From: Candidatus Nomurabacteria bacterium
Lineage (GTDB): Bacteria; Patescibacteriota; WWE3; UBA101185; UBA10185
Assembly: GCA_020631855.1 (NCBI GenBank)
Contig: JACKGU010000001.1
Span: forward strand, 1-37,600
Reading direction: 5' to 3'
DNA: 37,600 bases
Every line of letters starts with the position of its first letter. The first letter of the stretch is position 1. The position numbers and the translations under genes are program-made. The notes under the pieces are model-generated. The model worked only from the letters and a program-made list of their open reading frames with translations. It did not search any database and was not told the origin of the DNA. This document shows, one piece after another, positions 7,122 to 36,277 of this stretch.

Positions 7122-7127
7122 AAACTA

Positions 7128-17630: not shown

Positions 17631-17859
17631 TATTGTTATCTTTATAACTGTGGGTACATTACAAGTGTAACATGGGCAGAAAAGGCTTTCAACTTTTATC
17701 TTCTATGTTAGGCCGAATAGGTTTTACACGCAAACTGATCATAATTACAGAATTGTTTCATCTGTTGCTAAGCCATGCTTGGCACTGTAGGAAATATTTT
17801 TTTCTAAAAATTAACCACCTTTTACATGTATTCTAAATGGAATTCTTTTTACATGATGT

Positions 17860-17865
17860 TACAAT
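17860..17865 (+). promoter_or_regulatory. Extended -10-like TGtTACAAT ending 6 nt upstream of the rnhA ATG
   Basis: The sequence atgTGtTACAATaagcctATG has no SD. Confidence 0.25.
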
Positions 17866-17871
17866 AAGCCT

Positions 17872-19194: not shown

Positions 19195-19201
19195 TTAATT
19201 T

Positions 19202-19318
19202 ATAATTTCGTTACTCAAACCTACCTACGCAAGATAGTAGATGTAGTTTACCCAACATGTTGAGCTCTGCAAGGCAAAGAAATTACAGCAAGCCACCTGC
19301 GTAAGCTGGTGATAGTTG
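19202..19318 (+). repeat. Structured intergenic repeat, copy A1 (full, 117 bp)
   Basis: ATAATTTCGTTACTCAAACCTACCTACGCAAGATAGTAGATGTAGTTTACCCAACATGTTG...AAATTACAGCAAGCCACCTGCGTAAGCTGGTG...TTG. It starts 8 nt after the stop of the upstream + gene. Confidence 0.9.
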
Positions 19319-19350
19319 ATAATTTCGTTACTCAAACCTATTTATGCAAC
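19319..19350 (+). repeat. Structured intergenic repeat, copy A2 (5' fragment, head-to-tail with A1)
   Basis: ATAATTTCGTTACTCAAACCTATTTATGCAAC repeats the first ~32 nt of the unit and then diverges. Confidence 0.8.
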
Positions 19351-19497
19351 AGAACTTCAGTTTTTAACTTACAATCGAACGAGCACGTCTTTATTAGTAA
19401 CGAGAGGCTGTAGATTTAGCTCGCAGCCCTTGATTTTGTTGTAAAACCTTTTTTAGTTGTTTTTTATGCCTTCATTGCTTTTTCTAAAGGTTGTGTA

Positions 19498-19531
19498 TAA
19501 AAAAGAAGCACCTCCTTTTGGAGGTGCTTTT
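19498..19531. terminator. Bidirectional intrinsic terminator candidate
   Basis: The hairpin AGCACCTCC-TTTT-GGAGGTGCT is flanked by an A-run upstream and TTT downstream. This gives UCUUUUUU on the - strand and a weaker UUUG on the + strand. Confidence 0.55.
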
Positions 19532-19624
19532 GGGCCGGTTACGCTACAAACATATTAGCATTTTTTATTTACTGCGATAAGACTTCAATTCTCAGTTCAC
19601 AGATGAAAGCACATGTGTGTGGTA

Positions 19625-19660
19625 TTAAAAAAGATGCTGCGGACATAAGTCCGCAGCATC
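19625..19660 (-). terminator. Rho-independent terminator of groES-groEL
   Basis: The - strand reads GATGCTGCGGAC-TTAT-GTCCGCAGCATC, a perfect 12-bp stem, followed by TTTTTTAA. It lies 55 nt after the groEL stop. Confidence 0.85.
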
Positions 19661-19715
19661 CTCATTTTCCAGCGGTAAGGTCGCTGGCATTGTCCGCGGG
19701 TTAAACGGAAATGAT

Positions 19716-21368
19716 CTACATCATTCCCGGCATTCCACCCATTCCGCCCATTCCACCGGCGCTCGAGTTCTCGTCTTTTTCTTGTGGAGCATCTGTTACT
19801 AAGCACTCAGTAGTTAGAATCATGGTTGCAACAGATACGGCATTTTGAATTGCGCTTCTCGTTACTTTTGCAGGATCCGTTATTCCTTCTTCTATCATAT
19901 CGACGTACTTCATTGTCATTACGTTAAATCCCATGTTTGAATTTTTCTTCTCGGTTGCAAGCCTTTCAATCTCACCTATTATTCGTCCTGCATCAACTCC
20001 TGCGTTTGAAACAATAAGCCTTACCGGTTTTTCAAGAGCGTTATATAAAGTTTTTGCTCCGACTTCCTCATCTTCTTCAAGCTTCATATCTAATAAAGCT
20101 TTTCTAATCTTAAGCAAGGTTACTCCGCCTCCGGGAACAATCCCTTCCTCTATTGCTGCTTTGGTTGCATTTACGGCATCTTCAACGCGTAATTTCTTTT
20201 CTTTAAGTTCGGTTTCTGAAGCCGCGCCAACTTTAATAACAGCCACGCCTCCGGTTAGTTTAGCTAATCTCTCTTGTAGTTTTTCTTTGTCGTAGTCAGA
20301 AGTGGTATTTTTTATTTGGCTTTCTATCTGCTGGACCCTTTCTTTTATAGCTACTTCGTTTCCTGTACCGCCGACTATTGTGGTTTCATCTTTTGTTGCA
20401 AATACTCTTTCTGCTCTTCCCAAATCCTCGACTGTTACTGAATCCAGCTTTCTTCCCATATCTTGGCTAATCATTGTGGCTCCGGTTAAAGCAGCAATAT
20501 CCTCAAGCATTGCTTTTCTTCTGTCACCAAATCCGGGGGCTTTGACAGCAAGTGCGTTAAAGGTGCCTCTAATTTTGTTTACGACTAAAGTTGCTAAAGC
20601 TTCTCCGTCGATATCATCTGCGATTATAACCAGATTTTTCGAAACTTTTACAAAGTTCTCAAGCATTGGTAGCAAGTCTTGCATACTTGAAACTTTTGCA
20701 TCAGTAACAAGAAGATACGCATCGTTTATTTCAGCGGTCATCTTATCTGTATCAGTAACAAAATATGGAGATGCATAGCCTTTATCAAACTGCATTCCTT
20801 CTTTGTGATCTAGCTCCATTTCGAATCCTTTTGATTCTTCAACTGTGATAACACCGTTGTCTCCAACTTTATCCATTGCGTCGGCAATTAAGTTTCCTAT
20901 CTCAGAACTTTGTGCTGAGATTGTTGCAACCTGGGCTTTTTCTTCTTTTGTTGTTATTTTCTTTGCTAAAGAGGCTATTTCTTTAACTACAACATCTGTA
21001 GCCTTTTCAAGGCCTTTTCTCAGAATCATTGGATTTGCGCCTGCAGAAACATTTCTAATACCTTCTTCAACTAAAGCTTGAGCAATTACTGTAGCTGTTG
21101 TAGTGCCATCTCCCGCTATGTCGTTTGTTTTTGAAGAAGCCTCTTTTACTAATTGGGCTCCCATATTTTCAAACTTGTCCTGAAGTTCTATCTCTTTTGC
21201 TACTGTTACTCCATCGTGAACAACCTGAGGGGACCCCCAGCTTTTATCCAACGCTACGTTTCTACCTTTTGGGCCAAGAGTTGTAGCTACAGCTTGCGCC
21301 AAAGCATCTACTCCTGCCTTTAGTTTTGTTCGGGCATCATTCCCGTAAATTATTTGTTTTGCTGACAT
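19716..21368 (-). CDS. groEL: Chaperonin GroEL (Cpn60)
   Basis: 550 aa. [27 protein letters not shown]..., [10 protein letters not shown] and a GGM-repeat C-terminus are present. SD is AGGAGG. Confidence 0.97.
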
Positions 21369-21405
21369 ATTGTCCTCCTAATTTATATACTCTTTTAACT
21401 TTTTA

Positions 21406-21702
21406 TTACTCGACCACGGCGAGAACGTCATCCTGCTTTACTAGGAGATGTTCTTTACCGTTTACTTTTACTTCAGTACCGCCCCATTTCTTGTACATTA
21501 CTATAGCTCCAACTTCGACCTCCATTTTTATTAGATCTCCGTTTTCTCCTCTTTTTCCTGCTCCTGCTGCTATAACTCTGCCTTTTTGTGGCTTTTCTTT
21601 TGCTGTGTCAGGAATAACAATACCTGAGGGAGTTGTAGTCTCTTCCTCTAAGGGTTCAATTAATATATAGTCGAACATTGGCTTTATTTTAGTATCGGCC
21701 AT
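21406..21702 (-). CDS. groES: Co-chaperonin GroES (Cpn10)
   Basis: The start is set at ATG 21700-21702 (MADTKIKPMFDYILIEP...), preceded by AGGAGG. The ORF-track version carries a 25-codon upstream extension. Confidence 0.95.
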   Translation of the reverse strand: MADTKIKPMFDYILIEPLEEETTTPSGIVIPDTAKEKPQKGRVIAAGAGKRGENGDLIKMEVEVGAIVMYKKWGGTEVKVNGKEHLLVKQDDVLAVVE

Positions 21703-21872
21703 TCTAACCTCCTGTTTTATCGTGGCTTTATTTTTTAATTTTATAAAGCTTTGATATAAGAGATTTTGCAATGTCATTGCAAAATCTCGCTTGTGAAATT
21801 TAATACTCCTCGCGTATAGCAGAAAATTTATAGCACTCTATGCTTGTGAGTGTCAAGTTTTAGAATGCTTTT

Positions 21873-23696
21873 TTATTTAGCGTAAATTCTTATTTTATCT
21901 CCGCCAATCTTTTCTTGTTTGTATATTTCTATTCGACCGATTTCTTTTGTGTTTTGTACATGCGGGCCGCCGCAAAACTCTCTACTAAAAGCACTTTCAA
22001 GCGAATCCCCTATAAAGTAAACTTTTACCATGTCTCCGTATTTTTCTCCAAAAAAATGCAGTGCTCCGGTTTTTTGTGCAGTTTCCTTGGGCATAATCTC
22101 ATACTGAACCTTTATAGCCTCTTCTATCTTTTTATTCACTAGCTCTTCAACAGCCTTAAGTTCTTTTTCAGATAACTTCTGGTTGTGCGAGAAATCAAAT
22201 CTTAAACGCTCGTTTGTTATATTACTGCCCTGTTGGGTAATCTGTGGCCCAAGAGTTTGTCTCAGCGCCCAGTGCAGTAGGTGAGTGGCAGTGTGGTATT
22301 TAGTAATTTGTTCAGTGTGTTCTGCTAAGCCCCCTTTAAATTTCTTCTCTGCGCCGACTCTCGACAAAGCTTGGTGTTCTTGCTGAATTCGTTTGAACTC
22401 TTCTTCAAAGTCCTTTTGATCCAGATTCACGCCTTTTTCTTTGGCATCTTCAATAAAGATTTCTTGCGGATAGCCCACTGACTGATATAGGGCAAAACTA
22501 ATTTCTGCCAAATGTTGTGTTGTGGTTGTGCCCCCTATGCCTGAAAGTTCTTTTTCGGCTTCTTTCGATCCTTTATGCAGGGTTTTTCTAAATTTTGTTT
22601 CTTCGTCACGCAGAATTTTTAATGCCTCCCCCTCTATTTTTGGAAGTTCCGGGTATATCCAACTAAGCATGTTGATAGTTGGGGAAAGAAGTTTGGATGA
22701 GATATCTTGGTCAATATCTAAGAATCTTCCGGCGCGAACCATTAGTCTTATTAGTCTTCTTAGTATATACCCTTGATCTTTATTAGATGGCAGAACTCCG
22801 TCCATCATTAGTATGGTGGCTGCTCTCATGTGATCGGCAATTTTCCTCATGGCGATAGTAGTATTGTTGTCCAGCTTGTATGGTTTTCCGGTTATTCTCT
22901 CAAGCTCACTAATTATTGGCCAAAAATTATCGGTTTCAAAAATATCGTTTTTTTCTTGAGCTACAAGGGCCAGTCTTTCAAGGCCGCCGCCAAAATCAAC
23001 ATTTTTTTGCGGTAATTCGACCCAACTATCTTCGGCTTTTTTATATTGCATAAAAACACTATTGCCGATTTCCAAGAACTCATCTTCGTTTTCATGCGGG
23101 CTCAATCCAAATCCCGTACCCTCCCGTCCTATGTAGTAAAAAATTTCGCTGTCCGGACCTCCAAGTTCGCCTACTGCTTCTCCTCTTTGCCACCAATTGT
23201 CTTTTTTACCATACGCAAAAATTCTCTCATCCTCTTTTGCTTCAATGCCGTATTTTTCAAATATTCTTTTAAGTATTTCAACCGCCTCAGTGTCCTTTGG
23301 AGCGTCTTCGTCGCCCTTAAAAACTGTGGCGTATATTTTATTTGGATCCAGGCCTAAAACCTCAATTAAAAACTCGTACGCCCACGGTAATTGCTCTTGT
23401 TTAAAATAATCCCCTAAACTCCAGTTACCTACCATATGAAATAGAGTTGTATGTCTATTTGTGTGCCCAATATTCTCAATATCTTCAAAGAACCTTAAAC
23501 ACCTTTGAACATTTGTAAGTCTTTTTCCCATGGGGTGGCTCTGCCCCGATAAGTAGGGAACAAGCGGAAACATTCCCGAGTTCACATACAGGAGTGTAGG
23601 GTCATTTTCCGGCACAATAGAAACGTTTGGGATTAGCTCGTGCCCGCGGTCTTTATAAAATTGTATATACTTTTCCAGTATTTCTTTTGAAGTCAT
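21873..23696 (-). CDS. alaS: Alanine--tRNA ligase, short form (catalytic, tRNA-recognition and editing domains; no C-Ala domain)
   Basis: 607 aa. DPTLLYVNSGMFPLVPY, QRCLRF and FHMVGNWSLGDYFK are present. The editing Zn motifs are HTATHLLH (HxxxH) and CGGPH (CxxxH). The ORF ends ~30 aa after the latter. Confidence 0.9.
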   Translation of the reverse strand: MTSKEILEKYIQFYKDRGHELIPNVSIVPENDPTLLYVNSGMFPLVPYLSGQSHPMGKRLTNVQRCLRFFEDIENIGHTNRHTTLFHMVGNWSLGDYFKQEQLPWAYEFLIEVLGLDPNKIYATVFKGDEDAPKDTEAVEILKRIFEKYGIEAKEDERIFAYGKKDNWWQRGEAVGELGGPDSEIFYYIGREGTGFGLSPHENEDEFLEIGNSVFMQYKKAEDSWVELPQKNVDFGGGLERLALVAQEKNDIFETDNFWPIISELERITGKPYKLDNNTTIAMRKIADHMRAATILMMDGVLPSNKDQGYILRRLIRLMVRAGRFLDIDQDISSKLLSPTINMLSWIYPELPKIEGEALKILRDEETKFRKTLHKGSKEAEKELSGIGGTTTTQHLAEISFALYQSVGYPQEIFIEDAKEKGVNLDQKDFEEEFKRIQQEHQALSRVGAEKKFKGGLAEHTEQITKYHTATHLLHWALRQTLGPQITQQGSNITNERLRFDFSHNQKLSEKELKAVEELVNKKIEEAIKVQYEIMPKETAQKTGALHFFGEKYGDMVKVYFIGDSLESAFSREFCGGPHVQNTKEIGRIEIYKQEKIGGDKIRIYAK

Positions 23697-23703
23697 GTTT
23701 CTT

Positions 23704-23777
23704 TGGAGGCCTGGGCGGGAATCGAACCCGCGATGAGGGTTTTGCAGACCCTTGCCTTACCACTTGGCTACCAGGCC
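23704..23777 (-). tRNA. tRNA-Cys (anticodon GCA), CCA encoded
   Basis: The reverse complement reads GGCCUGG UA GCC AAGUGGUAA GGC A AGGGU CUGCAAA ACCCU CAUC GCGGG UUCGAUU CCCGC CCAGGCC U CCA. It forms a cloverleaf with a U73 discriminator, the Cys identity element. Confidence 0.9.
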
Positions 23778-23810
23778 ACGAATTTTTGTGTCAATGCTAG
23801 TTGCTATTTT

Positions 23811-23824
23811 AGCACGTGCGTGCT
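23811..23824. promoter_or_regulatory. GC-rich palindrome AGCACG-TG-CGTGCT in a 67-bp divergent intergenic region (operator candidate)
   Basis: A perfect 6+6 inverted repeat lies between the tRNA-Cys 5' end (23777) and the ATG of the PEGA gene (23845). Confidence 0.3.
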
Positions 23825-23844
23825 ATCTTTCCTATGTATATATT

Positions 23845-25104
23845 ATGTCAATTTCAACTTTAGTACCAACAAAAGAGAGAAAAACATCAAAGCCATTCTA
23901 CACTATTATCCTGTACATTTTAATTTCTTTTGGTTTTGTTGCTTTGGCATATTTTGGGCTTGTTTTTGTTAAAAATATTTCTAAATCTAAGATACCTGCA
24001 GCCCTTGAATTGAAAGTAGAAAACGGCGAGGCAGAGGTTTTTCTGGACGGAGTATCTATTGGAAAATCTCCTATTGAGAATTATCAGCTTGAAGCCGGCA
24101 GTCACGAAGTAATGCTGCAGTCGGGCGATGGCATGTCGTATAAAACAAACATCGATTTTGTTCCGGGGGCGGCCGCTGTAGTCATCAAAGAGCTAGGTTC
24201 TTCCAGTCTGTTTTCCTCAGGCGCCAGTGTCTGGTTTGCTAAAAAGTCTGCAGACAGTTCTTTGAGTGTGATATCTGAGCCCTCGGGGGCAGATGTTTAT
24301 ATAGACGGCACTCTGGTGGGAAGCACGCCTTACAATTCGGCTAAGTTAAGTGCCGGAGGCTACGAGATTAAGGTTGCAATGGCTGGATACGAGGACCGTG
24401 TTCTTCGAGCTGAGGTTCTTGAAACTCACACGACTAACTTTAACGTTATTTTATTCCCAAATGCCGTACCTTCTGAAGTAGGCACTATAGAAGGTTACGA
24501 CAATATTTACGATGTAACCTCAAATGACCCCAGAGTTTTATCTGATATCTCAAGCTGGATAAAAGCCATTAATTACTGGACAACTACTAGAGGGGTTAAT
24601 ATTAAAGACTTAGGGCTGACAAAAGAGCCGTTGTTCACTTATTTTATTGACGCTGAGGGGATAGTATACGGCACTGATGGCACGACTCTTTCGGCCGATC
24701 AAGTGGCCGGATTGTCCTCGGATCAAAAGGGTGCGTATCTCCACAGTAAAAATGTTTCTGAAACTGAAGCATCCCAGCTCACAGAGAAAGCAAAATCATC
24801 AGTTGAAAAATTAGGCACAGGCCCGGTTCTTACTGAAGCTGAAAATAAAGAAATCCCTGGAACTGAAAATGCTGGAACGGTCGGGACGCCCCAAACAGGC
24901 ATAGGGGGACAGGCGACAATCCTTGATACTGGCTTGGGCTGGCTTAGGGTTAGAAATGCTCCGGGTTTGTCTGGTGAAGAGATAGCTAAGGTAAATGTCG
25001 GAGAAGCGTTTGAGGTTCTTGATATTCAGGGAGATTGGGTAAAAATTAGAGTTGATGCAAATGTTGCGGGATGGGTTTCTGCAACCTATGTTTCTATAGA
25101 TTAA
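23845..25104 (+). CDS. Membrane-anchored PEGA-domain / SH3b-domain envelope protein
   Basis: The start is set at ATG 23845 because the longer ORF overlaps tRNA-Cys. The TM is FYTIILYILISFGFVALAYFGLVFV. Two PEGA repeats are present (GEAEVFLDGVSIGKSP...GSHEV; SGADVYIDGTLVGSTPY...GGYEIKV). The C-terminal SH3b pattern is GWLRVRNAPGLSGEEI...GDWVKIRV..GWVSATYV. Confidence 0.7.
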   Translation: MSISTLVPTKERKTSKPFYTIILYILISFGFVALAYFGLVFVKNISKSKIPAALELKVENGEAEVFLDGVSIGKSPIENYQLEAGSHEVMLQSGDGMSYKTNIDFVPGAAAVVIKELGSSSLFSSGASVWFAKKSADSSLSVISEPSGADVYIDGTLVGSTPYNSAKLSAGGYEIKVAMAGYEDRVLRAEVLETHTTNFNVILFPNAVPSEVGTIEGYDNIYDVTSNDPRVLSDISSWIKAINYWTTTRGVNIKDLGLTKEPLFTYFIDAEGIVYGTDGTTLSADQVAGLSSDQKGAYLHSKNVSETEASQLTEKAKSSVEKLGTGPVLTEAENKEIPGTENAGTVGTPQTGIGGQATILDTGLGWLRVRNAPGLSGEEIAKVNVGEAFEVLDIQGDWVKIRVDANVAGWVSATYVSID

Positions 25105-25110
25105 ACCCTT

Positions 25111-25228
25111 ATAATTTTTTTACTAAACTACCTTGCATAAGCCAGTAGATGTGGTTTACTCAACATGTTGGGCTTCGCGGCGCAAATAAATTACAGCAAA
25201 CCATTTGCGTAAGCTGGCGGCGGCTGAT
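25111..25228 (+). repeat. Structured intergenic repeat, copy B (full, most diverged)
   Basis: ATAATTTTTTTACTAAACTACCTTGCATAAGCCAGTAGATGTGGTTTACTCAACATGTTGGGC...AAATTACAGCAAACCATTTGCGTAAGCTGGCGGCGGCTGAT. It fills nearly the whole 132-bp convergent spacer. Confidence 0.85.
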
Positions 25229-25236
25229 ATAAGCTT

Positions 25237-27294
25237 CTATTTAAGTAGGTCGGAATTCCACTGTAAAATATCAGGCCTAAGAGTTTCAATTCGCACAAGG
25301 CTTTCTTTAAATTTTTCCTCCAGCCCCAGTAGATTTTGATATTTTGCTGCTTGTATTTGAACTCCCAGGTCTGTGGGGTAGTCTGTTTGAAGTTTCTCTG
25401 AATAATCTAAAAAATCCCCAATAGTTGCATTATCGATATTATCTTTGCTTGACGGCATGGCTAGATCATTAATGGCCAAGAAATAATAAAGGCCCAACGC
25501 GTCTCTTTTTGTAGCGAGATTGTTCGGGTTTATTTTAATGCCTTTTTCAATGTTGGCGATTGCTTGTTTTTTAAGCTGCGCGTGCATATTAGGTTTAGTG
25601 TCTAGTGTTTGAAGCGTTAAGGCTTTAGCTTTCTGTAGATAGTAATTTGGCTCATATTTCCACAATCTGAGAGCAACGTCTATGTTTTCGTTTGACGCAG
25701 ACACCGAGCCGTTTAATATCGCGTTTCTGGCTTTACTATAAAAGTATTCTGCGGCTGCATATCTTAAAGCAAACACTATTATGAGTACAAAAATTCCAAG
25801 TGTACAAAGCTTGCTCAGTTTGTGCACCGGGCCATTTAATATTCTATTTAATGACTTTATTCTTGCTAGCGTTTCTCTGCTGTTCTGTGTTTTTTGCTCG
25901 AACTTCATAAGAAGCTTGCCGTAGTTATTTAGTTCATCTTCTCCTTCTCTCGTCTCTTTTAAAGCGTAAATTCCAACGATAACAATAAAAATAAATGAAA
26001 GAGCTATACTCGGCCAGCCAAAAAAGTTTGTTATAACTATAGTCGAAAGAGCAGGTGACAGTATTTCATCTTTTCTTCTATATAAATAAGATACCAGCAA
26101 TATGTAGCCGATAAGACCTAAAATACCTTGCTCTGCCAACATTTCCAGATAGTAGTTATGCGGTTTGTTTATGATGTAGTCCCATTCGGACGAAAAATTC
26201 AATGCTGGGGGCCTAAAGTTTTGAAAAACAAACGGAAACGTTTCAGGACCGTATCCTAAAATAAATCGAGCCGGACTTGATGTTGCAAGCTGGATTGTCC
26301 CGAGCCACACCTGCCCTCTTATAAAAGCAGGATCGGAATAGAATCTTTGGTTTGTGTTCGGAAAAGTGTCTGGCGCGTTACTTTTAATGTTGTTTGTAGC
26401 TCTGTTGCTGTACTGTGGGTTTTGCAAAGCGTAGTTAGTTCCCGAAAAGCTTGTTTTTATGTCTTCAAATACGTCGTGGACCCTTTTTGCTAAAGGGGCC
26501 GCACAGACCGTGGAGAATACAAAGAAAAATATTAAAGTGATTCTAAGCTTCTTACACTTTGCTATTATTATGTTTGTTGTTTTATGGATATTTTTCCTCG
26601 AGCTACCTAGCTTCGCGCCGAAAAATATTAACACTAAAAGACCTATAAACAAGCCCGCAAGCGCGGACAAAGAGTAGGTTAAAACAATGACTGAGAATCC
26701 AAGGATGGCGTTTAAGTTATACCAAAAAACGCGTCCTTTTATTTGCTCTTTATTTGTTTGTATCAATAGTGCTAGGTTTAGCAGTATTGTGGTTGCTAAA
26801 TACGATCCGAGCCAATTAGGCTGTCCAAAGGTTCCTCCAATTCTAAAAGTTTGGGTAGAGATATATTGCACCAAAGCAAAAATACTTACTGATAGAGTCG
26901 AGAAGGCGATGGTTTCTATCAATTCTTGCGATTTTTTAGTGTCAATTTTTCTAATAAGAAGGTAAGTAGCAAGCAAAATAATTTGAAATAAAAAAGAATC
27001 CCCGTAGCGTGTGTAGTAGCCAATTAAAGATCCAAGAAAATAGGTTGAAGCTAGAGTAGATAGCGCTAAGAGAATAAAATTTCCTATTACTAGAGCATCG
27101 GTCTCGGAAAACCCTGATTTATATGACAATCTGTCGGCACTTGAGCGATTGTTCTGCTTTTGTGCCATAAAAGCTAGGCTAACAGCTATTAACGTGAAAA
27201 TAAATTTTGAGAACTCGTATGTTTCTTGACCCGGCAACCCTAAAATTATAGGCAGGAGTAAAATAATAAGTTTAATTGACGAAGTAGTCGACAC
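25237..27294 (-). CDS. O-antigen-ligase-family (Wzy_C-type) polytopic membrane protein with C-terminal TPR region
   Basis: 685 aa with a GTG start. Many TM helices are present. GTFGQPNWLGSYL and KPHNYYLEMLAEQGILGL are typical of the family. The C-terminal ~190 aa are TPR-like. Confidence 0.75.
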   Translation of the reverse strand: MSTTSSIKLIILLLPIILGLPGQETYEFSKFIFTLIAVSLAFMAQKQNNRSSADRLSYKSGFSETDALVIGNFILLALSTLASTYFLGSLIGYYTRYGDSFLFQIILLATYLLIRKIDTKKSQELIETIAFSTLSVSIFALVQYISTQTFRIGGTFGQPNWLGSYLATTILLNLALLIQTNKEQIKGRVFWYNLNAILGFSVIVLTYSLSALAGLFIGLLVLIFFGAKLGSSRKNIHKTTNIIIAKCKKLRITLIFFFVFSTVCAAPLAKRVHDVFEDIKTSFSGTNYALQNPQYSNRATNNIKSNAPDTFPNTNQRFYSDPAFIRGQVWLGTIQLATSSPARFILGYGPETFPFVFQNFRPPALNFSSEWDYIINKPHNYYLEMLAEQGILGLIGYILLVSYLYRRKDEILSPALSTIVITNFFGWPSIALSFIFIVIVGIYALKETREGEDELNNYGKLLMKFEQKTQNSRETLARIKSLNRILNGPVHKLSKLCTLGIFVLIIVFALRYAAAEYFYSKARNAILNGSVSASNENIDVALRLWKYEPNYYLQKAKALTLQTLDTKPNMHAQLKKQAIANIEKGIKINPNNLATKRDALGLYYFLAINDLAMPSSKDNIDNATIGDFLDYSEKLQTDYPTDLGVQIQAAKYQNLLGLEEKFKESLVRIETLRPDILQWNSDLLK

Positions 27295-27331
27295 AGCTGT
27301 ATTATACTATGTAAGGAGTAAGTTCTGCCTT

Positions 27332-27898: not shown

Positions 27899-27899
27899 C

Positions 27900-28265: not shown

Positions 28266-28340
28266 TGTTCAGAGAAGTATTTTTTAAAAATGTTTTTCTC
28301 AGTTCACAAAAATAATTTTTGTATATAATCCTAGATATTT

Positions 28341-29306
28341 TTATAGGGTTGAGAAATATATGAGTATTGAAGGTAGAAGGTAGATCACAAACAAAGTAGC
28401 CACGCCCCATGTTATTACAGAAGCGAACAGCGGTTTATCGGACATGAGTACTCTTGCGGGAGATTCTCCCTCCTCCTTTTCATAAATGACGTACAGATAC
28501 CTAGCGACGCCGTAAATAACAATAGGTATAGTGAGCATCATCCATTTTGGCGAGCTGATTATTGATGGTAGAACTTTAGTTATTGCAGCGTCGTTCGTTT
28601 CCGGAGATATTTGAAAAGCAAATAGAGCGTAGGTAATTATGCAGAATGTAGAGGACATCGAGATCATGCTATTTAAGAGGTTGTCGGGGTAGTGCCTTAG
28701 GGTGTCGCGAGTTTTAATTTGGTCTTTTGTGTCTAAATGTTTAAGAAGTATGGTTTTTTCAGATCTTCTTTTTCCAAACGCCAGGAGAAGCGAAAGGCCA
28801 GTTGTTGTAAGAATTAGCCACGAAGACACCGAGCTTTCGGCCGCAAAACCTCCTGCAAAAACTCTTATTATGAACCCTCCTGCTACAAAAAGAGCTTCCA
28901 AGATTATAATATTTCTTATCTTGATAGAATAGGCAACCTGTATTGCGATATAAAAAATTACTGCCAATGTAAAATACGTGCCGACAAAGAAATATCCCCC
29001 CAACACCGACCCTCCTAGAAGAATAAATATTATTATTTGAGCTTGTTTGGCAGATATTTTTCCTGAGGCAATGGCCCTGTTTCTTTTAATAGGGTGTAGG
29101 CGGTCTTTTGGGGCGTCCATAAGGTCATTAAAAAAATAGATGCCAGAGGAAAGTATACAAAAAACCACCACACCTTTGACAGTGTTAGCAAAAACATTAG
29201 TTTCAAAGAGTGTGCCTGCAAAAACAGGTGCGGCAAAAAGACTTAAGTTTTTAAGCCATTGTCGTGGCCTTGCTGTTCTGATTACGTGATAAATAAACCC
29301 TACCAT
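28341..29306 (-). CDS. UbiA-family prenyltransferase, decaprenyl-phosphate phosphoribosyltransferase (DPPR synthase)-like
   Basis: 321 aa. RPRQWLKNLSLFAAPVFAG and NDLMDAPKDRLHPIKRNRAIASGKIS match the remembered Rv3806c-type pattern. About 8 TM helices are present. Confidence 0.8.
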   Translation of the reverse strand: MVGFIYHVIRTARPRQWLKNLSLFAAPVFAGTLFETNVFANTVKGVVVFCILSSGIYFFNDLMDAPKDRLHPIKRNRAIASGKISAKQAQIIIFILLGGSVLGGYFFVGTYFTLAVIFYIAIQVAYSIKIRNIIILEALFVAGGFIIRVFAGGFAAESSVSSWLILTTTGLSLLLAFGKRRSEKTILLKHLDTKDQIKTRDTLRHYPDNLLNSMISMSSTFCIITYALFAFQISPETNDAAITKVLPSIISSPKWMMLTIPIVIYGVARYLYVIYEKEEGESPARVLMSDKPLFASVITWGVATLFVIYLLPSILIYFSTL

Positions 29307-30099
29307 TACTGTAAATAGTATGTCTTTTTGCCCTTATTTTCAATGGTTTCTTTGATAGAGCCAAGCAGTAAACCTTTGTCGCGCCCGATTTTTTCATTGC
29401 TTTCGCCGTTTCCAATAATGTGGCTCCTGTTGTCCAAATGTCGTCTACAAGTATTATTTCCTTGCCTCTAGAGTCAGCCTTAGCACTAAAGGCATCTTGC
29501 ACATTTTTGTATCTGTTTCTTCTCGTTAGGCCATATTGATGGTACGTATCTATGTTTCTTTTTAGCAAGCCTGAATTTATTTCAAGTTTGAAATGCTTCG
29601 CAAAAATTTCTGCAATTAGTTCCGCTTGATTAAAGCCTCTTTTTTTGAGTTTAGACTTTGAGGGCGGTACCGGAACTATTATTGGAGCACTGTTATACTC
29701 AAAGAGATCTCTAACCCCCGACTGTAGGAGATTATTAGCCGCATTAGTGCTGATTTCCTTTAATATCTCGAAATGTTTTGAACCGAATTTTGCTTCTTTA
29801 ATACAGAGCCTGACGAAACCTGCGTATTCGTAAATTCCTAACGTGGCTTCCGGAGAATACTCGGAAGCGCATAATTTATGTGTTTTGCCATCGATAGTAG
29901 GCTTGTCGCACACAATACAGTTCGAGTTATTTAAGACTTTGAACCAGGCTAGGCAGTCGCTACATAATAAGGCGTTTTCGGACTTGGCTATAGCATCTTT
30001 TAGCACAAACTTAGGCCCATATACCTTTTTTAGTACAGCGTGCCTTGTTTTGCAGAGCACGCAGCTTTTCGGAAAAATTAGGTTGTAAAGATTTTCCAT
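29251..30099 (-). CDS. comF: ComF-family phosphoribosyltransferase-fold protein
   Basis: 282 aa. An N-terminal Cys4 cluster is present (CVLC...CSDC, CIVC...C). The PRTase loop is ILVDDIWTTGATL. The 3' end overlaps the downstream UbiA gene by 56 nt. Confidence 0.8.
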   Translation of the reverse strand: MENLYNLIFPKSCVLCKTRHAVLKKVYGPKFVLKDAIAKSENALLCSDCLAWFKVLNNSNCIVCDKPTIDGKTHKLCASEYSPEATLGIYEYAGFVRLCIKEAKFGSKHFEILKEISTNAANNLLQSGVRDLFEYNSAPIIVPVPPSKSKLKKRGFNQAELIAEIFAKHFKLEINSGLLKRNIDTYHQYGLTRRNRYKNVQDAFSAKADSRGKEIILVDDIWTTGATLLETAKAMKKSGATKVYCLALSKKPLKIRAKRHTIYSNGRVYLSRNQNSKATTMA

Positions 30100-30335
30100 A
30101 AGTTATCCACAATTTAATAAACCCCGTCACTAAAGGTCGGGTATAGTACGACACCCTATAGCGTGTGTGCTTTGTACCTTATAGTACACATATCCTAGCA
30201 CCTCGCCTCGGCCTGTATAAGGTGGTTGTCTATTTTGGGTAGCCATGTATCTAGAGTATTCAGCAGTCGAGGCCCCCGTGGTTTTAAACGAAGCTTTTCA
30301 CTATATATTCTGGCTAAATATTAAGCGCGAATCTT

Positions 30336-30454
30336 ATAATTTCGTTACTTAAAACTACTTAATTAAGCTAGTAGCTGTAGTTTACACAACATGTTGGGCT
30401 TTGCGGCGGAAAGAAATTACAGCAAGCCACCTGCGTAAGCTGGCGGTGGTTGAT
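30336..30454 (+). repeat. Structured intergenic repeat, copy C (full)
   Basis: ATAATTTCGTTACTTAAAACTACTTAATTAAGCTAGTAGCTGTAGTTTACACAACATGTTGGGC...AAATTACAGCAAGCCACCTGCGTAAGCTGGCGGTGGTTGAT. It lies 126 nt upstream of the ABC gene ATG. Confidence 0.9.
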
Positions 30455-30579
30455 AAAACGCCTATTAATATGTTTTCAATAATAATTAATAGCTGTATAC
30501 TTTTATTGTTGCCTTTTTTCTTTCCGCACAACAGTAAACAGTAAAAGGCAACAGGTGGACTCAAAAGCACAGCCAGATT

Positions 30580-32439
30580 ATGTTTAGCAAATACGACAAA
30601 AACAAAATTTTTAGCAACATCTTAACAACAAGGTTTCGCGAAGAAACGTTGCTAGTATTTCGTACGGTGAAAAGGTTCATAAAGTATTCTTGGCAAACAA
30701 ATAAAAAGTTATATTTTATATATTCCTTTATTACAATTTTATTGGCCACGGTGCCCATTGTTATATCTTGGGTCGAGAGTCGTATCATTGACCAGCTTAC
30801 AGGTTATTTACAATCCGAAAATGTTGTTAGGGTAAGCACAGCCCTGTTATTGTTAATTTTAAGCCTAGTCTCGGTCCGTGTTATCAAAAGCCTGTTAGAC
30901 ATTGTCGAGGGCATTCTTAATTTGAAATGGTTCTTTGTGCTGGGTCAAAAGATTAACTTCGATTTCATAAGGAAAGCGTCTATCTTAGATGTGGCCCATT
31001 TCGAAAACAATGAAACTCACAATCTTTTAAACACCTCAGATGAAAATGTTAACCGAGCACTGAACTTATCCGCTAACATAGTAGGGTTTTCCTACCCAAT
31101 TATAGGTTTGCTGTCTAGCGTTGTTATATTGGCAAGCTATAAACCTTCCATTATTTTATTTGCCTTGGTGGCGGTTCTGCCTGCGGCCATTATTGATGTA
31201 GCTTTTGGTAGGAAAAGTTACGGTATTTGGGGTGCAGAAGGGGCAGTCAGAAGGGACTATTACAAATCAAGATGGTATCTAATAGATGCCCAGCAGCTGC
31301 TAGAGGTTAGAGTAAACAAACTTAGAGAATTTCTGCTTGAAAGGGTTTATGGCCTGTATTCTTCATTTGAAGAGAAGCAAACAGAAAACGAAATTAAAAG
31401 GACTAAATATCAAGTTGCATCAAGTGTTTTATTATTCTTTTTTGGGCTTTATACGTACCTTATTCTCGTTAATTCAGTAATCTCTAAAGAAATAACGTTG
31501 GGGGAATTCACCTTTTATATTAGTATGATAGGTATTTTTTCTGGCGGTTTAGCACGTCTTTTGAGTACTTTTTCAAGTATTTACCGTAGTAGCCTTTTTG
31601 TTGATGGGGTTTTTAAAGTTTTTGATCTTGAAAATAAGATTGTTCCGGGCGAGAGGTGCCTTGCAGATAACAAAATTCCTCCGCGTATAGAGTTTAGAAA
31701 TGTAGACTTTTTTTACCCAACTTCTACAGAAGATAACAAGGTTCTCGTTGACTTTAATTTGATTATTAAACCCGGTGAGAAAGTTGCTTTGGTTGGTGTA
31801 AACGGAGCGGGAAAAACCACCATAGTCAAGCTACTCATGCGAATCTACGATGTAACAGGAGGAGAAATCTTAATAGACAATATTCCATTAAAAGATTTGA
31901 GTTTGGAGAACTGGTACTCAAAAATTGGCGCCTTGTTTCAGGAATTTAATTTTTATCATTTTGATGCAAAAACGAATATTGCAACAGGAGATCCTTCGAG
32001 AATGGACGATATAGATGCGGTAGTTGAGGCAGCGAAAAAGTCGGGTGCTCACAGCTTCATTAAAAACTATGAGTACGGGTATGATCAGGTTTTAAGTACC
32101 GTTTTTGAGAAAGGCATTATTCCCTCAGCTGGCCAGAAACAAAAAATTGCTGTAGCAAGAACTTTTTTTAAAGACGCCCCAATCCTTATACTAGATGAGC
32201 CTACTAGTGCAATTGATGCTAAGGCTGAATTTGAGATTTTTGAAAATATTTATACTTTTTCGCAGAATAAAACAGTAATAACTATATCCCACAGATTTTC
32301 AACTGTTCGTAATGCCGACCGAATTCTTGTTTTAGAAAAGGGCAAAATCCTAGAAGACGGTTCTCACAATGAGCTGATGCTTTTAGAAGACGGTGTGTAT
32401 AAAAAAGCTTTTGAATTGCAGAAGAGGGGTTATGTTTAG
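30580..32439 (+). CDS. ABC exporter, fused permease and ATPase (MsbA/type I exporter-like half transporter)
   Basis: 619 aa with 6 TM helices. Walker A is GVNGAGKTT, the signature is PSAGQKQKIAVAR, Walker B is ILILDEPTSAID and the H-loop is ITISHR. Confidence 0.9.
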   Translation: MFSKYDKNKIFSNILTTRFREETLLVFRTVKRFIKYSWQTNKKLYFIYSFITILLATVPIVISWVESRIIDQLTGYLQSENVVRVSTALLLLILSLVSVRVIKSLLDIVEGILNLKWFFVLGQKINFDFIRKASILDVAHFENNETHNLLNTSDENVNRALNLSANIVGFSYPIIGLLSSVVILASYKPSIILFALVAVLPAAIIDVAFGRKSYGIWGAEGAVRRDYYKSRWYLIDAQQLLEVRVNKLREFLLERVYGLYSSFEEKQTENEIKRTKYQVASSVLLFFFGLYTYLILVNSVISKEITLGEFTFYISMIGIFSGGLARLLSTFSSIYRSSLFVDGVFKVFDLENKIVPGERCLADNKIPPRIEFRNVDFFYPTSTEDNKVLVDFNLIIKPGEKVALVGVNGAGKTTIVKLLMRIYDVTGGEILIDNIPLKDLSLENWYSKIGALFQEFNFYHFDAKTNIATGDPSRMDDIDAVVEAAKKSGAHSFIKNYEYGYDQVLSTVFEKGIIPSAGQKQKIAVARTFFKDAPILILDEPTSAIDAKAEFEIFENIYTFSQNKTVITISHRFSTVRNADRILVLEKGKILEDGSHNELMLLEDGVYKKAFELQKRGYV

Positions 32440-32476
32440 CTTTGTGGGATATTTTTGCCCCCAGAACTCGTTTTTT

Positions 32477-32593
32477 ATAATTTCGTTACTTAATACTATT
32501 TACGCAAGATAGTAGATGTAGTTTGCCCAACATGCTGGGCTTTGCAACTTAAAGAAATTACAGCAAACTACTTGCGTAAGCTGGTGGTGGTTG
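32477..32593 (+). repeat. Structured intergenic repeat, copy D1 (full, 117 bp)
   Basis: It starts 38 nt after the ABC stop codon and is head-to-tail with D2. Confidence 0.9.
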
Positions 32594-32712
32594 ATAATTT
32601 CGTTACTTAATACTATTTACGCAAGATAGTAGATGTAGTTTGCCCAGTATGTTGGTCTTTGCAACGTAAAGAAATTACAGCAAGCCACCTGCGTAAGCTG
32701 GTGGTGGTTGAT
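32594..32712 (+). repeat. Structured intergenic repeat, copy D2 (full)
   Basis: This is the second unit of the tandem pair. Hairpin 2 (CCACC-T-GC-GTAA-GC-T-GGTGG) lies at 32685-32704. Confidence 0.9.
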
Positions 32713-32734
32713 AATAAGTTTCTCTGTCATAAAA

Positions 32735-32769
32735 AGCCGCTTTTGTAGTTTTCAAGGCGGCTCGTTTTT
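32735..32769 (+). terminator. Intrinsic terminator candidate downstream of the ABC gene and the D1/D2 repeats
   Basis: AGCCGC-(16-nt loop)-GCGGCT is followed by CGTTTTT. Confidence 0.45.
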
Positions 32770-32822
32770 GAATATCCTTTTTTTATGTCATACTTAGAAC
32801 AATAGTTGCAACTTATAAGAGA

Positions 32823-35800
32823 TTGATTGTGCCCAAGTCATTTAAAAACTATAAACGAATAATAACCACCTCAGCTTTTTTTGGCTGTTGTGTTTTTTCT
32901 TTCTTGCTATTTAAGAAGGAAATTCCTAATTCTAGCGCATCTCTGGCCTGTCCTTTAGCTGACAGCGATGACGGAAATGTGGACGGCACTATAACCATTT
33001 CAGGATCGGAGACTTTCTCTGCAGTAGCAGGAGATGGCACTATTGATTGTAGTGGTCTGGCCGTTGTAGTTGAAAATGGCGGGTCTTTAGCGTTGGAGCC
33101 CTACGAAGACGGTGATACAGACTACGAAGACGACGACATCGGAGTTACATTGATGGCCGACAGCTTAACAGTTGAAGCCGGGGGCAGAGTACATTCTGAT
33201 GGTTTGGGTTATGCAGGCGGGGTTTTTGTTTCATATGAGTCCGGCTATGGGCCCGGCGGGGGTTACGGGAACTCTGGTAAAGGCAGCAGTGGTGGCGGAG
33301 GAGCTTATGGCGGCGACGGAGGAGATTCCTCTGGTCTTTATACTCGCCCCGGCGGAAATCAATATGGAAAGCCCGCCGACCCCCTATTGTTAGGTAGTGG
33401 CGGCGGTGTTGGAAGGTCCGGAGGCAACGTGCCTTCAGGAGGGGCGGGCGGAGGAGCTTTTTCCATTGTTCTGTCGGGAGATTTGGTGTTGGAGGGAGAG
33501 ATTTCCGCTGATGGACTTGCCGGTACCCAGACGTCCGATACATTATATGGCTCTGGAGGAGGTTCCGGAGGATCGATCTGGCTTTCTATTGGGGGCCAAC
33601 TTTCAGGCGGAGGAGATATTTCTGCTAACGGTGGTAGCGGGGGCAAAGCGAACGCTGGTAACGGCGGTGGCGGGAGAGTCTTGGTTGAATACGGAACCTC
33701 AGCCTATACAGGCGTTTATGAGGCTTCCCCCGGATTAGTCGGAACTACTGGTGAAAATGGCTCGGTTGTAGTTGTGGACAGCACGTCGGCAACCATGTAC
33801 ATTAGAGATACTCAAAGATGGATTCCTGATTCCGTTAATTCTTTTGAAAACTGGTTTCCTGAAGTTCAAAACATAGAGATATCTGATAATTCTTCTTTAA
33901 AATTGCAAATTAGTAATACTGCCGCAGATTCAGGAAGCTATGGTTGGGAGTTCGACATCCAAAATCTTATAGTTGCAGCAGGTAGTAGTATTTCTGGAGA
34001 AGGGCTAGGTTATCAGGGCGGTATTTTTACAACACATGAAAATGGTTATGGTCCTGGAGGAGGGCAGGGCATTTCAGGCAGCACAAGCTATGGTGCAGGG
34101 GGCGGTCACGGCGGAGCGGGCTCGAGTTCTTCGAGCAGGGTTGGCGGCTCGGCTTATGGAGACAACCAGGAGCCCGTTACTCCGGGAAGTGGCGGCGGAG
34201 TGGGGCGTTATTCAAGTAGCGTGCCTTCAGGAGGCCCCGGGGGCGGCGCTGTAAAGATTACTACTCGCGAGGATGCTACTATTGATGGAGACATAAACTT
34301 CGACGGCGTTATGGGTGAGCTGACTATTATAGTAGGCCGTGCTTCAGGAAGCGGAGCCGGGGGCTCCGTCTGGTTGAATGTGTACGGAACTTTGTCAGGA
34401 TCCGGGAACATCACTGCTCGCGGTGCTGATGCAGTAGACGCAGGTGCAGGGGGCGGAGGTGGCGGCAGAATAGCGATTTATGTTGCTCACGATGATTTTT
34501 CTTCAGGTACTTACGCTTATGGGGGCGGGGTGGTTAGCTATGCTGTGCCCGGAGCCGGAACCTTTTATCAATATGGCCTTCCTTATTTCTCAGGCGTTGC
34601 TCAATATTACGCTGACGGCGTAACTCCAATTGCTACCGCCGCATCATTAAATGAAACTTCGGTCGTTCTTGAAGTTAGCATGAATCATGGTAGTGCTTCA
34701 GAAACATTGACGCCTGAGGTTGAAATTCGTGAAGTTGGTGATGACTTTACTAATACCGCTACCCATACGGGAGACCCTTTTGTTTATGCTGACTCAGTAG
34801 TTGGCGGGCAAGTGGCCGTCACAGGTTTATCAGATTTAGCCTCCTATCATTGGCAGGTACGTTTTTGCGATTCTAACTCAAATTGCACATCATGGCAAAG
34901 TTATGGCGCAAACTTGGAATCAGAAGCGGACTTTACAGTAATATTAAATGCGGAACCAAACATTCCCTCTAATCTAGGCCCTGCCTCTTATGTAGACGGC
35001 AGTTATGGTACAGATTCAACTCCGGCGTTAAGTTTCACGTTGTCCGATCCGGACGTTGTTGATGACCTGCAGTATCAGATTCAAATAGATGATACATCCG
35101 ATTTCAGCTCTGTTCTCGTAGATTATACTTCTGAAGCTCTTTCACAAGGTCCGCAATCTTTTGTTGTGGGCCAGGCCGAGGGAGGGGGCAGTTATACTAT
35201 CGGAAGCTCAGGACAAACTCTCGTTGACGCCGCATATTATTGGAGAGTTAGGGCAATTGACCCAAGCTTAGAGATTTCTCCCTATGCCACGGCCAATTCG
35301 GGAGATATTGCGTACATAATAGACTCGACAGGCCCCGAAATTGTTGGTGCTGTGACCGGAGATGTGTCGAAGAGCCATATAGTGATGTCGTGGACTACTG
35401 ATGAGCTTAGCACCGCTAAAGTGTGGTGGGGCAAAGCAAGCGGAGGCTATACAAATAGTACAATAATTTCAACACTAAGCTTAAACCACCAAGCCGACTT
35501 ATCTAATTTATCTACCGATACAAAATATAATATTATGATTGTGAACTACGATGCTCAAAATAACGCAGGTACTGAGTATTTAACCTCATACACCACTAAT
35601 GAGAGTACGTCTCAAGATAAAGACGATAAGGATAGAAACAACAATGACTCGGAGAATACAGTTTCATCTAATATTTCTGACGACACAGACGTAACTTTTA
35701 CTCGAATTCAATCGTTTGATTACGAAAATAGCTTTAAGAGCGATCCAAATGAATCTGATGATCAGGGCGGCGATAAGGCGTTGGACGAGAGCATGCAGAT

Positions 35801-36161
35801 AGTTGTTGATGAGCCTCTGTATGATCTGGTGGTATATGTAAAAGATAGAAAAGGTAATCTAGTGCCCGATGCCCTAGTTACAATAAAAGAGCTGAATATT
35901 AGTGTAAATGCAGACAATAACGGCAAGGCCGTGTTTCCAAATGTTCCTAAATCTGTCTATACAGTTAGTGCCAAAACTCCTTTAGGGGATGTTATGGGCA
36001 TTGTTGATCGCGCTTCTTTTGGAAGCGAGAGTGAAGTATATTTTGAATTAACTTCTGATAGGGGGTTTTTCTCAAATAGGGTTGTTCAGGCAGGGGCACT
36101 TACCGCACTATTTTTAGTGTTGGTCTTAATTCTTAAAACGGTTCTGACGAAGAAGATATAA
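32823..36161 (+). CDS. Giant Gly-rich (predicted beta-helix) surface protein with duplicated module, FN3-like domains, carboxypeptidase-regulatory-like domain and C-terminal TM
   Basis: 1112 aa with a TTG start (GTG at 32829 is an alternative). An N-terminal signal/anchor is present. Two ~265-aa Gly-rich modules share GLGY.GG.F...GYGPGGG, SGGGVGR, VPSGG.GGGA, GSG.GGS.WL and GGGGR. FN3-like segments follow. Next is YDLVVYVKDRKGNLVPDALVTIKE...VYTVSAKTP. The C-terminal TM is ALTALFLVLVLIL. Confidence 0.6.
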   Translation: MIVPKSFKNYKRIITTSAFFGCCVFSFLLFKKEIPNSSASLACPLADSDDGNVDGTITISGSETFSAVAGDGTIDCSGLAVVVENGGSLALEPYEDGDTDYEDDDIGVTLMADSLTVEAGGRVHSDGLGYAGGVFVSYESGYGPGGGYGNSGKGSSGGGGAYGGDGGDSSGLYTRPGGNQYGKPADPLLLGSGGGVGRSGGNVPSGGAGGGAFSIVLSGDLVLEGEISADGLAGTQTSDTLYGSGGGSGGSIWLSIGGQLSGGGDISANGGSGGKANAGNGGGGRVLVEYGTSAYTGVYEASPGLVGTTGENGSVVVVDSTSATMYIRDTQRWIPDSVNSFENWFPEVQNIEISDNSSLKLQISNTAADSGSYGWEFDIQNLIVAAGSSISGEGLGYQGGIFTTHENGYGPGGGQGISGSTSYGAGGGHGGAGSSSSSRVGGSAYGDNQEPVTPGSGGGVGRYSSSVPSGGPGGGAVKITTREDATIDGDINFDGVMGELTIIVGRASGSGAGGSVWLNVYGTLSGSGNITARGADAVDAGAGGGGGGRIAIYVAHDDFSSGTYAYGGGVVSYAVPGAGTFYQYGLPYFSGVAQYYADGVTPIATAASLNETSVVLEVSMNHGSASETLTPEVEIREVGDDFTNTATHTGDPFVYADSVVGGQVAVTGLSDLASYHWQVRFCDSNSNCTSWQSYGANLESEADFTVILNAEPNIPSNLGPASYVDGSYGTDSTPALSFTLSDPDVVDDLQYQIQIDDTSDFSSVLVDYTSEALSQGPQSFVVGQAEGGGSYTIGSSGQTLVDAAYYWRVRAIDPSLEISPYATANSGDIAYIIDSTGPEIVGAVTGDVSKSHIVMSWTTDELSTAKVWWGKASGGYTNSTIISTLSLNHQADLSNLSTDTKYNIMIVNYDAQNNAGTEYLTSYTTNESTSQDKDDKDRNNNDSENTVSSNISDDTDVTFTRIQSFDYENSFKSDPNESDDQGGDKALDESMQIVVDEPLYDLVVYVKDRKGNLVPDALVTIKELNISVNADNNGKAVFPNVPKSVYTVSAKTPLGDVMGIVDRASFGSESEVYFELTSDRGFFSNRVVQAGALTALFLVLVLILKTVLTKKI

Positions 36162-36209
36162 AATCTTCTCCGGGAGTTAAATTAAAAAGAAAATCTCTTT
36201 CCGCTTTTT

Positions 36210-36277
36210 ATAGTTTCGTTATTTAAAACTACCTACGTAAGTTAGTTGGTGTAGTTTACCCAATATGTTGGGCTTTT
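36210..36277 (+). repeat. Structured intergenic repeat, copy E (5' half; 3' half degenerate to about 36310)
   Basis: ATAGTTTCGTTATTTAAAACTACCTACGTAAGTTAGTTGGTGTAGTTTACCCAATATGTTGGGCTTTT. It lies 49 nt after the stop of the giant gene. Confidence 0.75.

Follow-up and report, generated by a model that had tools for sequence, protein, structure and literature searches.

Short single-orientation repeats near the replication origin of a Patescibacteria genome are probably miniature, gene-less derivatives of IS200/IS605 elements

The first 37,600 nt of contig JACKGU010000001.1 from a Candidatus Nomurabacteria bacterium (assembly GCA_020631855.1), hereafter called the window, contain a family of non-coding repeats of about 117 nt, represented by five full and two truncated units. 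Repeat finding, pattern searches and alignment place every one of them on the plus strand. These repeats are probably PATE-like elements, that is, miniature, gene-less and non-autonomous derivatives of IS200/IS605 insertion sequences (IS), whose active strand would lie on the lagging-strand template. Genomes of the Candidate Phyla Radiation (CPR, or Patescibacteria) are tiny and are held to contain little mobile DNA and few repeats. The preliminary description of this DNA had left the choice between a transcribed structured module and a strand-specific non-autonomous mobile element. The second alternative is now supported by the inversion of the repeats across the origin, by a cleavage-site/guide rule at their ends, by syntenic relatives devoid of copies, and by the spread of the family through the genome and through the CPR.

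The 5' box of the repeat, ATAATTTCGTTACTTAA, was searched with a tolerance of up to three mismatches and occurs seven times (at 19202, 19319, 25111, 30336, 32477, 32594 and 36210), always on the plus strand. Its expected count by shuffling was 0.31, and seven occurrences were reached in none of 100 shuffles. The 3' box, AAATTACAGCAA..TGCGTAAGCTGG, is present five times, also on the plus strand only, against an expectation of 0. Both the sites and the uniform polarity reported in the preliminary description are thereby recovered. Full units are 116-117 nt long, and the copies of the window are mutually diverged (60-86% identical) and partly degenerate; their coordinates are given in Table 1. 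The copies begin 6-48 nt past the stops of plus-strand genes ending at 19194, 25104, 32439 and 36161, and one copy ends 125 nt ahead of the ABC gene, much as the preliminary description had it. Across the window genome, nine of ten loci lie 6-85 nt past the stop of a co-oriented gene. Copy 2 and the TTAT preceding it occupy almost all of the sequence that separates the PEGA/SH3 and Wzy_C genes, which are convergent, while the half copy is located between the gene for a 1112-aa protein and the tmRNA gene, 166 nt from the latter.

The units found in metagenomes and in other CPR genomes have a common 5' to 3' order. After TTAT comes AATTC, which forms the 5' strand of a long-range helix (P1), followed by TAAAA, the hairpin P2 (CTACCAGC GTTA GCTGGTAG), a stretch starting with AT and a variable centre; then follow GAATTA, the 3' strand of P1, the sequence CAGCAAA, the hairpin P4 (CCACC T GC GTAA GC T GGTGG) and the right tip, TTGTTGAT. 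The two hairpins are each 20 nt long, are carried by one strand and are identical at 16 of 20 positions (CTACCAGC-GTTA-GCTGGTAG compared with CCACCTGC-GTAA-GCTGGTGG). Neither terminal inverted repeats nor a target duplication were found, and the flanks are otherwise unrelated. The earlier statement that flanking direct repeats are absent therefore stands with respect to target duplication, but it overlooked that the units are preceded by TTAT and end in TGAT.

The fold of the unit was evaluated by covariation among 24 distinct sequences, in which 95.3% of the cells were paired, versus 18-60% with slid partners, and 38 double-change cells were observed versus 12.2 in shuffles, a count of 38 being reached in 0 of 500 shuffles. 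Both P2 and P4 covary, and a T-T mismatch is retained in P4. Folding as single-stranded DNA gave z = -5 for the WWE3-type and Saccharibacteria-type sequences (types A and B), and z = -1 for a window copy; three of the five single copies of the window fold no better than shuffled sequence. The structure is thus supported by the comparison with relatives rather than by the window copies alone, and the term 'structured' used in the preliminary description, which does not hold for those three copies taken singly, is justified by that comparison. The degenerate guides and hairpins of the window copies, together with their divergence, indicate that most of them are probably old and immobile.

The ends of the unit can be compared with those of IS608, whose transposase TnpA recognises subterminal imperfect palindromes and cuts the top strand (PMC3201880, PMC5934647). 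In IS608 the left cut follows TTAC, which lies outside the element at a distance of 19 nt on the 5' side of the left hairpin, and the right cut follows TCAA, which lies inside the element, 10 nt to the 3' side of the right hairpin; guide sequences just 5' of the hairpins (G_L AAAG, G_R GAAT) pair with these cleavage sites according to a rule that matches G1 to C2, G2 to C1 and G4 to C4 and has an A at G3 (PMC3201880, PMC5934647). In the repeats, TTAT stands directly before AATT, outside the unit, in 24 of 27 copies, and the right tip is TTGAT, its final four bases being TGAT. If TTAT and TGAT are taken as the left and right cleavage sites (C_L and C_R), the IS608 rule predicts the guides AAAA and CAAA, which are exactly the four bases found 5' of P2 and P4, respectively. 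The rule holds in 22 of 27 left ends and in 24 of 27 right ends. Two variants are compensatory: at L047:17914 a C_R of TTAT is accompanied by a G_R of AAAA, and in L007 a C_L of CTAT is accompanied by a G_L of AGCA, in which the G pairs with the C. C_L lies 15-17 nt 5' of the left hairpin (IP_L) and C_R lies 8 nt 3' of the right hairpin (IP_R), compared with 19 and 10 nt in IS608. In the head-to-tail dimer of the window, the TGAT that closes the first unit stands where the second would otherwise have its TTAT. A target of TTAT followed by AA would often overlap TAA stop codons, and the first bases of the inserted unit, AA, would restore the stop, as in locus L005; this overlap may account for the copies hugging gene ends.

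A contiguous 77 kb around the origin, from about -29.3 to +47.4 kb in window coordinates, was scanned with a covariance model of the unit. In this region dnaA is encoded on the minus strand and rpmH, rnpA, yidD, yidC, jag and dnaN follow on the plus strand; the dnaN noted at the window start in the preliminary description is present there as its C-terminal part (30-689). Judging from the gene order around dnaA, the origin should lie about 2.5-4.6 kb to the left of the window start. The model found no additional copy on the right side, as far as +47.4 kb, and three on the left side, at about -8.0, -9.5 and -16.1 kb, all inverted. The orientation is therefore split perfectly, with 7/7 copies on the plus strand to the right of dnaA/rpmH and 3/3 on the minus strand to the left, and the probability of such a split under random orientation is about 0.002. 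The preliminary description had suggested a link of the polarity to replication or to transcription, and this flip supports the link to replication. Gene strand does not account for the polarity: coding DNA at 18-37 kb is divided about 50:50 between the strands, and yet none of the units stands in minus orientation behind a minus-strand gene. On both sides of the origin the motif-bearing strand is the parental lagging-strand template, as has been reported for IS608, ISDra2 and other members of that family (PMC5027513). GC skew is mostly positive on the plus strand in the window, where it follows gene strand. In the other CPR loci, five sense and six antisense co-directional contexts were counted from crude open reading frame (ORF) calls, with 45% of ORF bases co-oriented with the element.

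The origin region has some features of its own. In L047 (4139-6373, corresponding to about -2.3 to -4.6 kb of the window) dnaA is divergent from the rpmH-rnpA-yidD-yidC-jag-dnaN genes, and dnaN does not directly follow dnaA. A gap of 512 bp separates dnaA and murT, and the relatives L048 and L049 share this unusual origin layout. On the left replichore, L050 contains at 16167-18050 a 129-aa fragment with the N-terminal SAM-like domain of phage integrases, beside about 1.2 kb without called genes; this region may be a decayed integrated element.

The presence of the repeats was compared with two syntenic relatives, L048 (GCA_964496005.1) and L049, which have the dnaA-dnaN gene order in common with the window genome and whose SBP proteins are about 60% identical to its own. 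No copy was detected in 41 kb of L048 and L049 with the search filters off. Three intergenic sites that hold a copy in the window genome are short and empty in L048 and L049. The intergenic distance at the Wzy-SBP site is 293 nt in the window genome, while the genes overlap in L048; at the SBP-GreA site it is 284 nt compared with 47 nt, and at the x-MetRS site 224 nt compared with 86 nt, the divergence of L048 and L049 being too great for the exact insertion joints to be read from these pairs. No orthologue of the ABC gene above 40% identity was found, and the SBP gene served for the empty-site comparison. An all-versus-all BLAST of the flanks of the loci, meant to pair filled with empty sites, gave no matches other than those between identical strains and those to tRNA genes.

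The window DNA is matched in activated-sludge and wastewater metagenomes and in the metagenome-assembled genomes (MAGs) GCA_020631805.1 and GCA_035593565.1, and the nearest homologues of its genome are found in WWE3 and other Patescibacteria. The preliminary description had proposed a search of the whole genome and its relatives, and the family does extend beyond the window, as judged by read depth and by its occurrence in CPR relatives. Relative to single-copy flanks, the depth over the unit was 25-29x in the DNA run X2 and about 27-37x in X9, and over the most conserved right part it rose to 39-52x (X2) and about 43-60x (X9). Separate contigs at the genome's own depth (17.6-20.9 in X2) carry one copy each, with 16-20 differences. 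These values suggest about 25-40 copies per genome, whose size we take to be about 1 Mb. Homology among the copies of the genome starts with TTATAA... and ends with ...TTGAT[AA], and some metagenome contigs pass directly from one unit into another. Short-read assembly of the organism is interrupted at the repeats: in a search of DNA runs for an allele with an empty site, the Logan contigs ended there, and none was listed that skips about 117 nt.

Relatives of the element were found by an exact-pattern scan with the right-end core, the conservation of which is therefore partly imposed by the search. Two loci each come from MAGs labelled WWE3 and Saccharibacteria, and the element is also present in Moranbacteria, in one MAG labelled Gammaproteobacteria and at about 25 metagenome loci, while a search of viral contigs, plasmids and phages produced no real match. 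The relatives are 105-126 nt long, and a minimal form from Moranbacteria has 63 nt. Two loci from one groundwater metagenome, L012 and L029, contain identical 114-nt elements at different places. The occurrence of identical elements in differing contexts, the copies next to tRNA-Pro genes in three lineages and the patchy distribution among phyla point to an element that moves, not to a gene passed on by vertical descent.

Several of these loci deserve mention. The 63-nt minimal form, seen in L005 (3602-3667) and L033, lacks the left hairpin but retains the left tip, a P1 hairpin, here short, and the entire right end. In L005, from a Moranbacteria MAG, the NifU-like gene upstream owes its stop codon to the TTATAA of the element, and the following gene begins 3 nt on. 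In three CPR lineages the element lies 17-57 nt from a tRNA-Pro gene (L001 4140-4230, L002 2400-2490 and L029 716-794), on the same strand in one lineage and on the opposite strand in two; in L004 (4840-4895), which belongs to the same WWE3 MAG as L001, it lies 24 nt from a tRNA-Val gene. This proximity to tRNA and tmRNA genes may be due to a preference for such targets, or these may just be places where an insertion does no harm.

The distribution also bears on the idea that the repeats serve the host as a signal in the single-stranded DNA of the lagging-strand template, such as an ssi-like priming site, whose polarity would follow from its function. Such a signal would agree with the strand-specific structure and with a polarity that follows the replichores, but it would hardly be missing from syntenic relatives, distributed patchily, and present as clustered, truncated and degenerate copies, and the cleavage/guide rule would have no role in it; we regard this explanation as very improbable.

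The behaviour of IS200/IS605 elements offers a mechanism that would unite these properties. A Y1 HUH transposase (TnpA) acting in trans would excise the top strand of the repeat as a single-stranded circle, which would then be pasted 3' of TTAT in single-stranded DNA at a replication fork. C_L, TTAT, would be located in the flank and C_R, TGAT, in the unit, each pairing with the guide (AAAA and CAAA, respectively) beside its hairpin. With the active strand on the lagging-strand template, a single orientation per replichore would be expected.

A number of observations weigh against this assignment. No Y1 transposase was detected in about 0.5 Mb of sequence, including about 100 kb of this genome and about 300 kb of other loci, by single-sequence phmmer with an IS200 TnpA query that had been validated against Pfam Y1_Tnp (131 bits). 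About 17 distinct occurrences of the right end, together with the metagenome contigs, revealed no long IS, a normal middle part preceding every right end. The polarity sample to the left of the origin consists of three copies only. TTAT and AAAA are motifs of low complexity and the genome is AT-rich, guides and hairpins are degenerate in several window copies, and the second unit of the dimer, with C_L TGAT and G_L AATA, violates the pairing rule. The helix P1 (TAATTC/GAATTA), which shows C-G to U-A changes and reaches up to 12 bp in the Saccharibacteria type, covaries as well, although such a helix is undescribed for IS200/IS605 elements; it may represent an added constraint, possibly at the RNA level (e.g. 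an omega-RNA), or a compaction of the single strand. Finally, the right tail has an alternative pairing of CAGC with GTTG, supported by two one-sided changes. A Pfam scan of the unannotated neighbours of the repeats likewise found nothing transposase-like.

The high copy number and the lack of a full-length IS in the loci could also be explained if the family were a domesticated repeat of the REP/BIME kind, served by one chromosomal RAYT (TnpA_REP) and not derived from a decaying IS. The chemistry would be the same, namely that of a Y1 HUH enzyme acting on single-stranded DNA hairpins (PMC6006769), and the intergenic copies, often at the 3' ends of genes, would fit. The repeats are, however, composites of about 117 nt with distinct left and right ends and an IS-type cleavage/guide geometry, rather than palindromes of 20-40 nt in inverted pairs, and every hairpin is in direct orientation. 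Moreover, no RAYT was found in the sequence searched for transposases, and the family is missing from L048 and L049. An origin of this kind is improbable.

Another reading takes the repeats to be mainly structured RNA, either a 3'-untranslated-region or small-RNA module, an element that governs processing or stability, or a scaffold resembling an omega-RNA that a TnpB nuclease uses in trans, with a polarity resulting from the co-orientation of transcription and replication. The covarying helices, including P1, which the transposase model does not need, speak in its favour, as do an invariant G-U pair and a ratio of G-U to A-C pairs of 47 to 18; this ratio, however, falls to 26 to 18 when the invariant pair is left out. 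The location of most loci of the genome shortly past the stop of a co-oriented gene makes sense read-through likely, and PATEs reportedly often encode omega-RNAs (PMC10055086). On the other hand, Rfam, used at gathering and at permissive thresholds (E up to 10), returned nothing over the repeats and only tmRNA and tRNA elsewhere. Neither a conserved promoter or -35 box at the unit starts nor a conserved terminator was found, and homology begins abruptly at TTAT. The six antisense versus five sense contexts in other CPR loci argue against a purely transcription-linked module; in addition, orthologous sites in relatives lack the element, and truncated copies occur. Taken together, this makes an RNA as the main identity of the repeats unlikely. 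A mixed possibility, in which the repeats are more than relics of transposon ends, is given an equally low probability. The multi-helix fold, with P1 unneeded by the transposase model, is kept across CPR phyla, and the reason would be that cells transcribe the unit and make use of it, be it as a guide scaffold of the omega-RNA kind for a TnpB in trans, be it as an RNA-end or insulator module that has been domesticated in these very small genomes and is maintained there without a resident transposase.

Other classes of element were considered and rejected. Integron attC sites do not fit, as the R''/R' core motifs are unfitting and the neighbours are housekeeping genes, and CRISPR or TIGR arrays would have spacers, which are absent. 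A riboswitch or leader with its own promoter was dismissed since the TATAAT lies inside helix P1 and a -35 box is absent, and known self-cleaving ribozymes gave no covariance-model match. Terminator-like matches are limited to marginal ones on the minus strand, where a 5-bp stem followed by TGTAATTTCT lies within the right-end region of three units (19288-19300, 30422-30434 and 32680-32692). These are probably chance matches, but they could matter to convergent minus-strand genes.

Table 1. Positions of the repeat units and of their component motifs in the window
Feature	Position	Strand	Remarks
TTAT, left cleavage/target motif (C_L) of copy 1	19200..19203	+	outside element; conservation begins there
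Copy 1, full 117-nt unit with TGAT end	19204..19320	+	score 113 bits; degenerate guides G_L AAAC, G_R CAAG
Stub of a second unit, first ~29 nt of left end only	19321..19349	+	head-to-tail with copy 1
Copy 2, 116 nt	25113..25228	+	96 bits
Copy 3, 117 nt	30338..30454	+	112 bits; homology edges among genome copies at 30334 and 30454-30456
Copy 3, left side	C_L TTAT 30334-30337; P1 30337-30343 with 30413-30419; G_L AAAA 30351-30354; left hairpin 30355-30374	+	
Copy 3, right side	G_R CAAG 30423-30426; right hairpin 30427-30446; C_R TGAT 30451-30454	+	
Copy 4, first unit of head-to-tail dimer	32479..32595	+	115 bits
Copy 5, second unit of dimer	32596..32712	+	left flank is TGAT of copy 4
5' half copy, ~66 nt	36212..36277	+	34 bits; left end, left hairpin and central hairpin; right end absent

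The sequences between and around the repeats were also inspected. Between a ComF-like gene and copy 3 there is an unannotated stretch of 235 nt (30100-30333) with local G+C-rich runs, which has no Rfam match and whose folding is no stronger than that of shuffles, with z = -0.64 on one strand and +0.65 on the other. The 366-nt non-coding gap past the stub (19350-19715) contains two strong terminator-like hairpins, at 19506-19529 and 19633-19660, readable on both strands, and a weak, sub-threshold MicC-like match at 19458-19543; it may give rise to a small transcript, or the hairpins may act as bidirectional terminators for GroEL and the upstream gene. The 1112-aa protein (32823-36161) appears to be secreted and has glycine-rich internal repeats (GSGGGVG...) encoded at 33393-33458 and 34185-34250. 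Adjoining dnaN, near the origin, a cluster resembling a type IV secretion system (T4SS) extends over 760-12554. It encodes a TraG/VirB4-like ATPase, a TraC-like protein, a PrgI-domain protein, two T4SS pilin-like genes, and proteins of 459 and 1184 aa without a Pfam match.

If the assignment to IS200/IS605 is correct, the tens of copies per genome and the relatives in several phyla would point to horizontal exchange of an IS200/IS605 lineage among CPR bacteria, and the orientation of the repeats would provide a ready marker of replication direction in CPR MAGs. The ends of this distant and uncharacterised family appear to be predictable from the cleavage/guide rule worked out for IS608, which makes the TTAT target testable. 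The repeats could, moreover, be mis-annotated as RNA genes.

Among known systems, the classical miniature inverted-repeat transposable elements and related repeats (Correia/NEMIS, RUP, ERIC, BOX and bcr1) are likewise short, non-coding, intergenic, multi-copy and foldable, and some are co-transcribed with their neighbours; unlike the family described here, they have terminal inverted repeats and target duplications, or are built of modular boxes. To our knowledge, the cleavage/guide geometry of the IS608 type occurs in none of them. REP/BIME sequences with their RAYT proteins resemble the repeats in being intergenic hairpin repeats of high copy number, often at gene ends, with putative handling of single-stranded DNA by a Y1 HUH enzyme. 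REPs are, however, single palindromes of 20-40 nt with a 5' GTAG, usually in inverted pairs, whereas the present units combine two direct hairpins with distinct flanks. The omega-RNA of TnpB, a structured right-end RNA of IS605-type elements, ends at the transposon boundary, which provides a further parallel. It differs in that no TnpB is encoded in the sequence examined and that the scaffold would be unusually short and without an Rfam match. Since the target-adjacent motif (TAM) of TnpB equals the left-flank motif of its transposon, TTAT is suggested as the TAM of a matching TnpB, if one exists.

The closest counterparts are PATEs, gene-less minimal versions of IS200/IS605 elements, dozens of copies of which can be mobilised in trans (PMC10055086). 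The repeats share with PATEs and with IS200/IS605 elements such as IS608, ISDra2 and ISGst1-5 the subterminal hairpins on one strand at both ends and the lack of terminal inverted repeats and of target duplication. Further common features are a T-rich motif of 4-5 nt outside the left end (TTAT here, TTAC in IS608 and TTGAT in ISDra2), guides 5' of the hairpins, a polarity following the replichores, and many copies without a transposase of their own. They differ from PATEs in their length of only about 117 nt, in the covarying helix that links the left tip to the region ahead of the right guide, in the lack of a cognate tnpA or tnpB in the sequence searched, and in their hosts, which are CPR/Patescibacteria of several phyla. 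On these grounds the repeats can be placed as a single-strand-transposon family of a known type, PATE-like and related to IS200/IS605, that is new for CPR bacteria.

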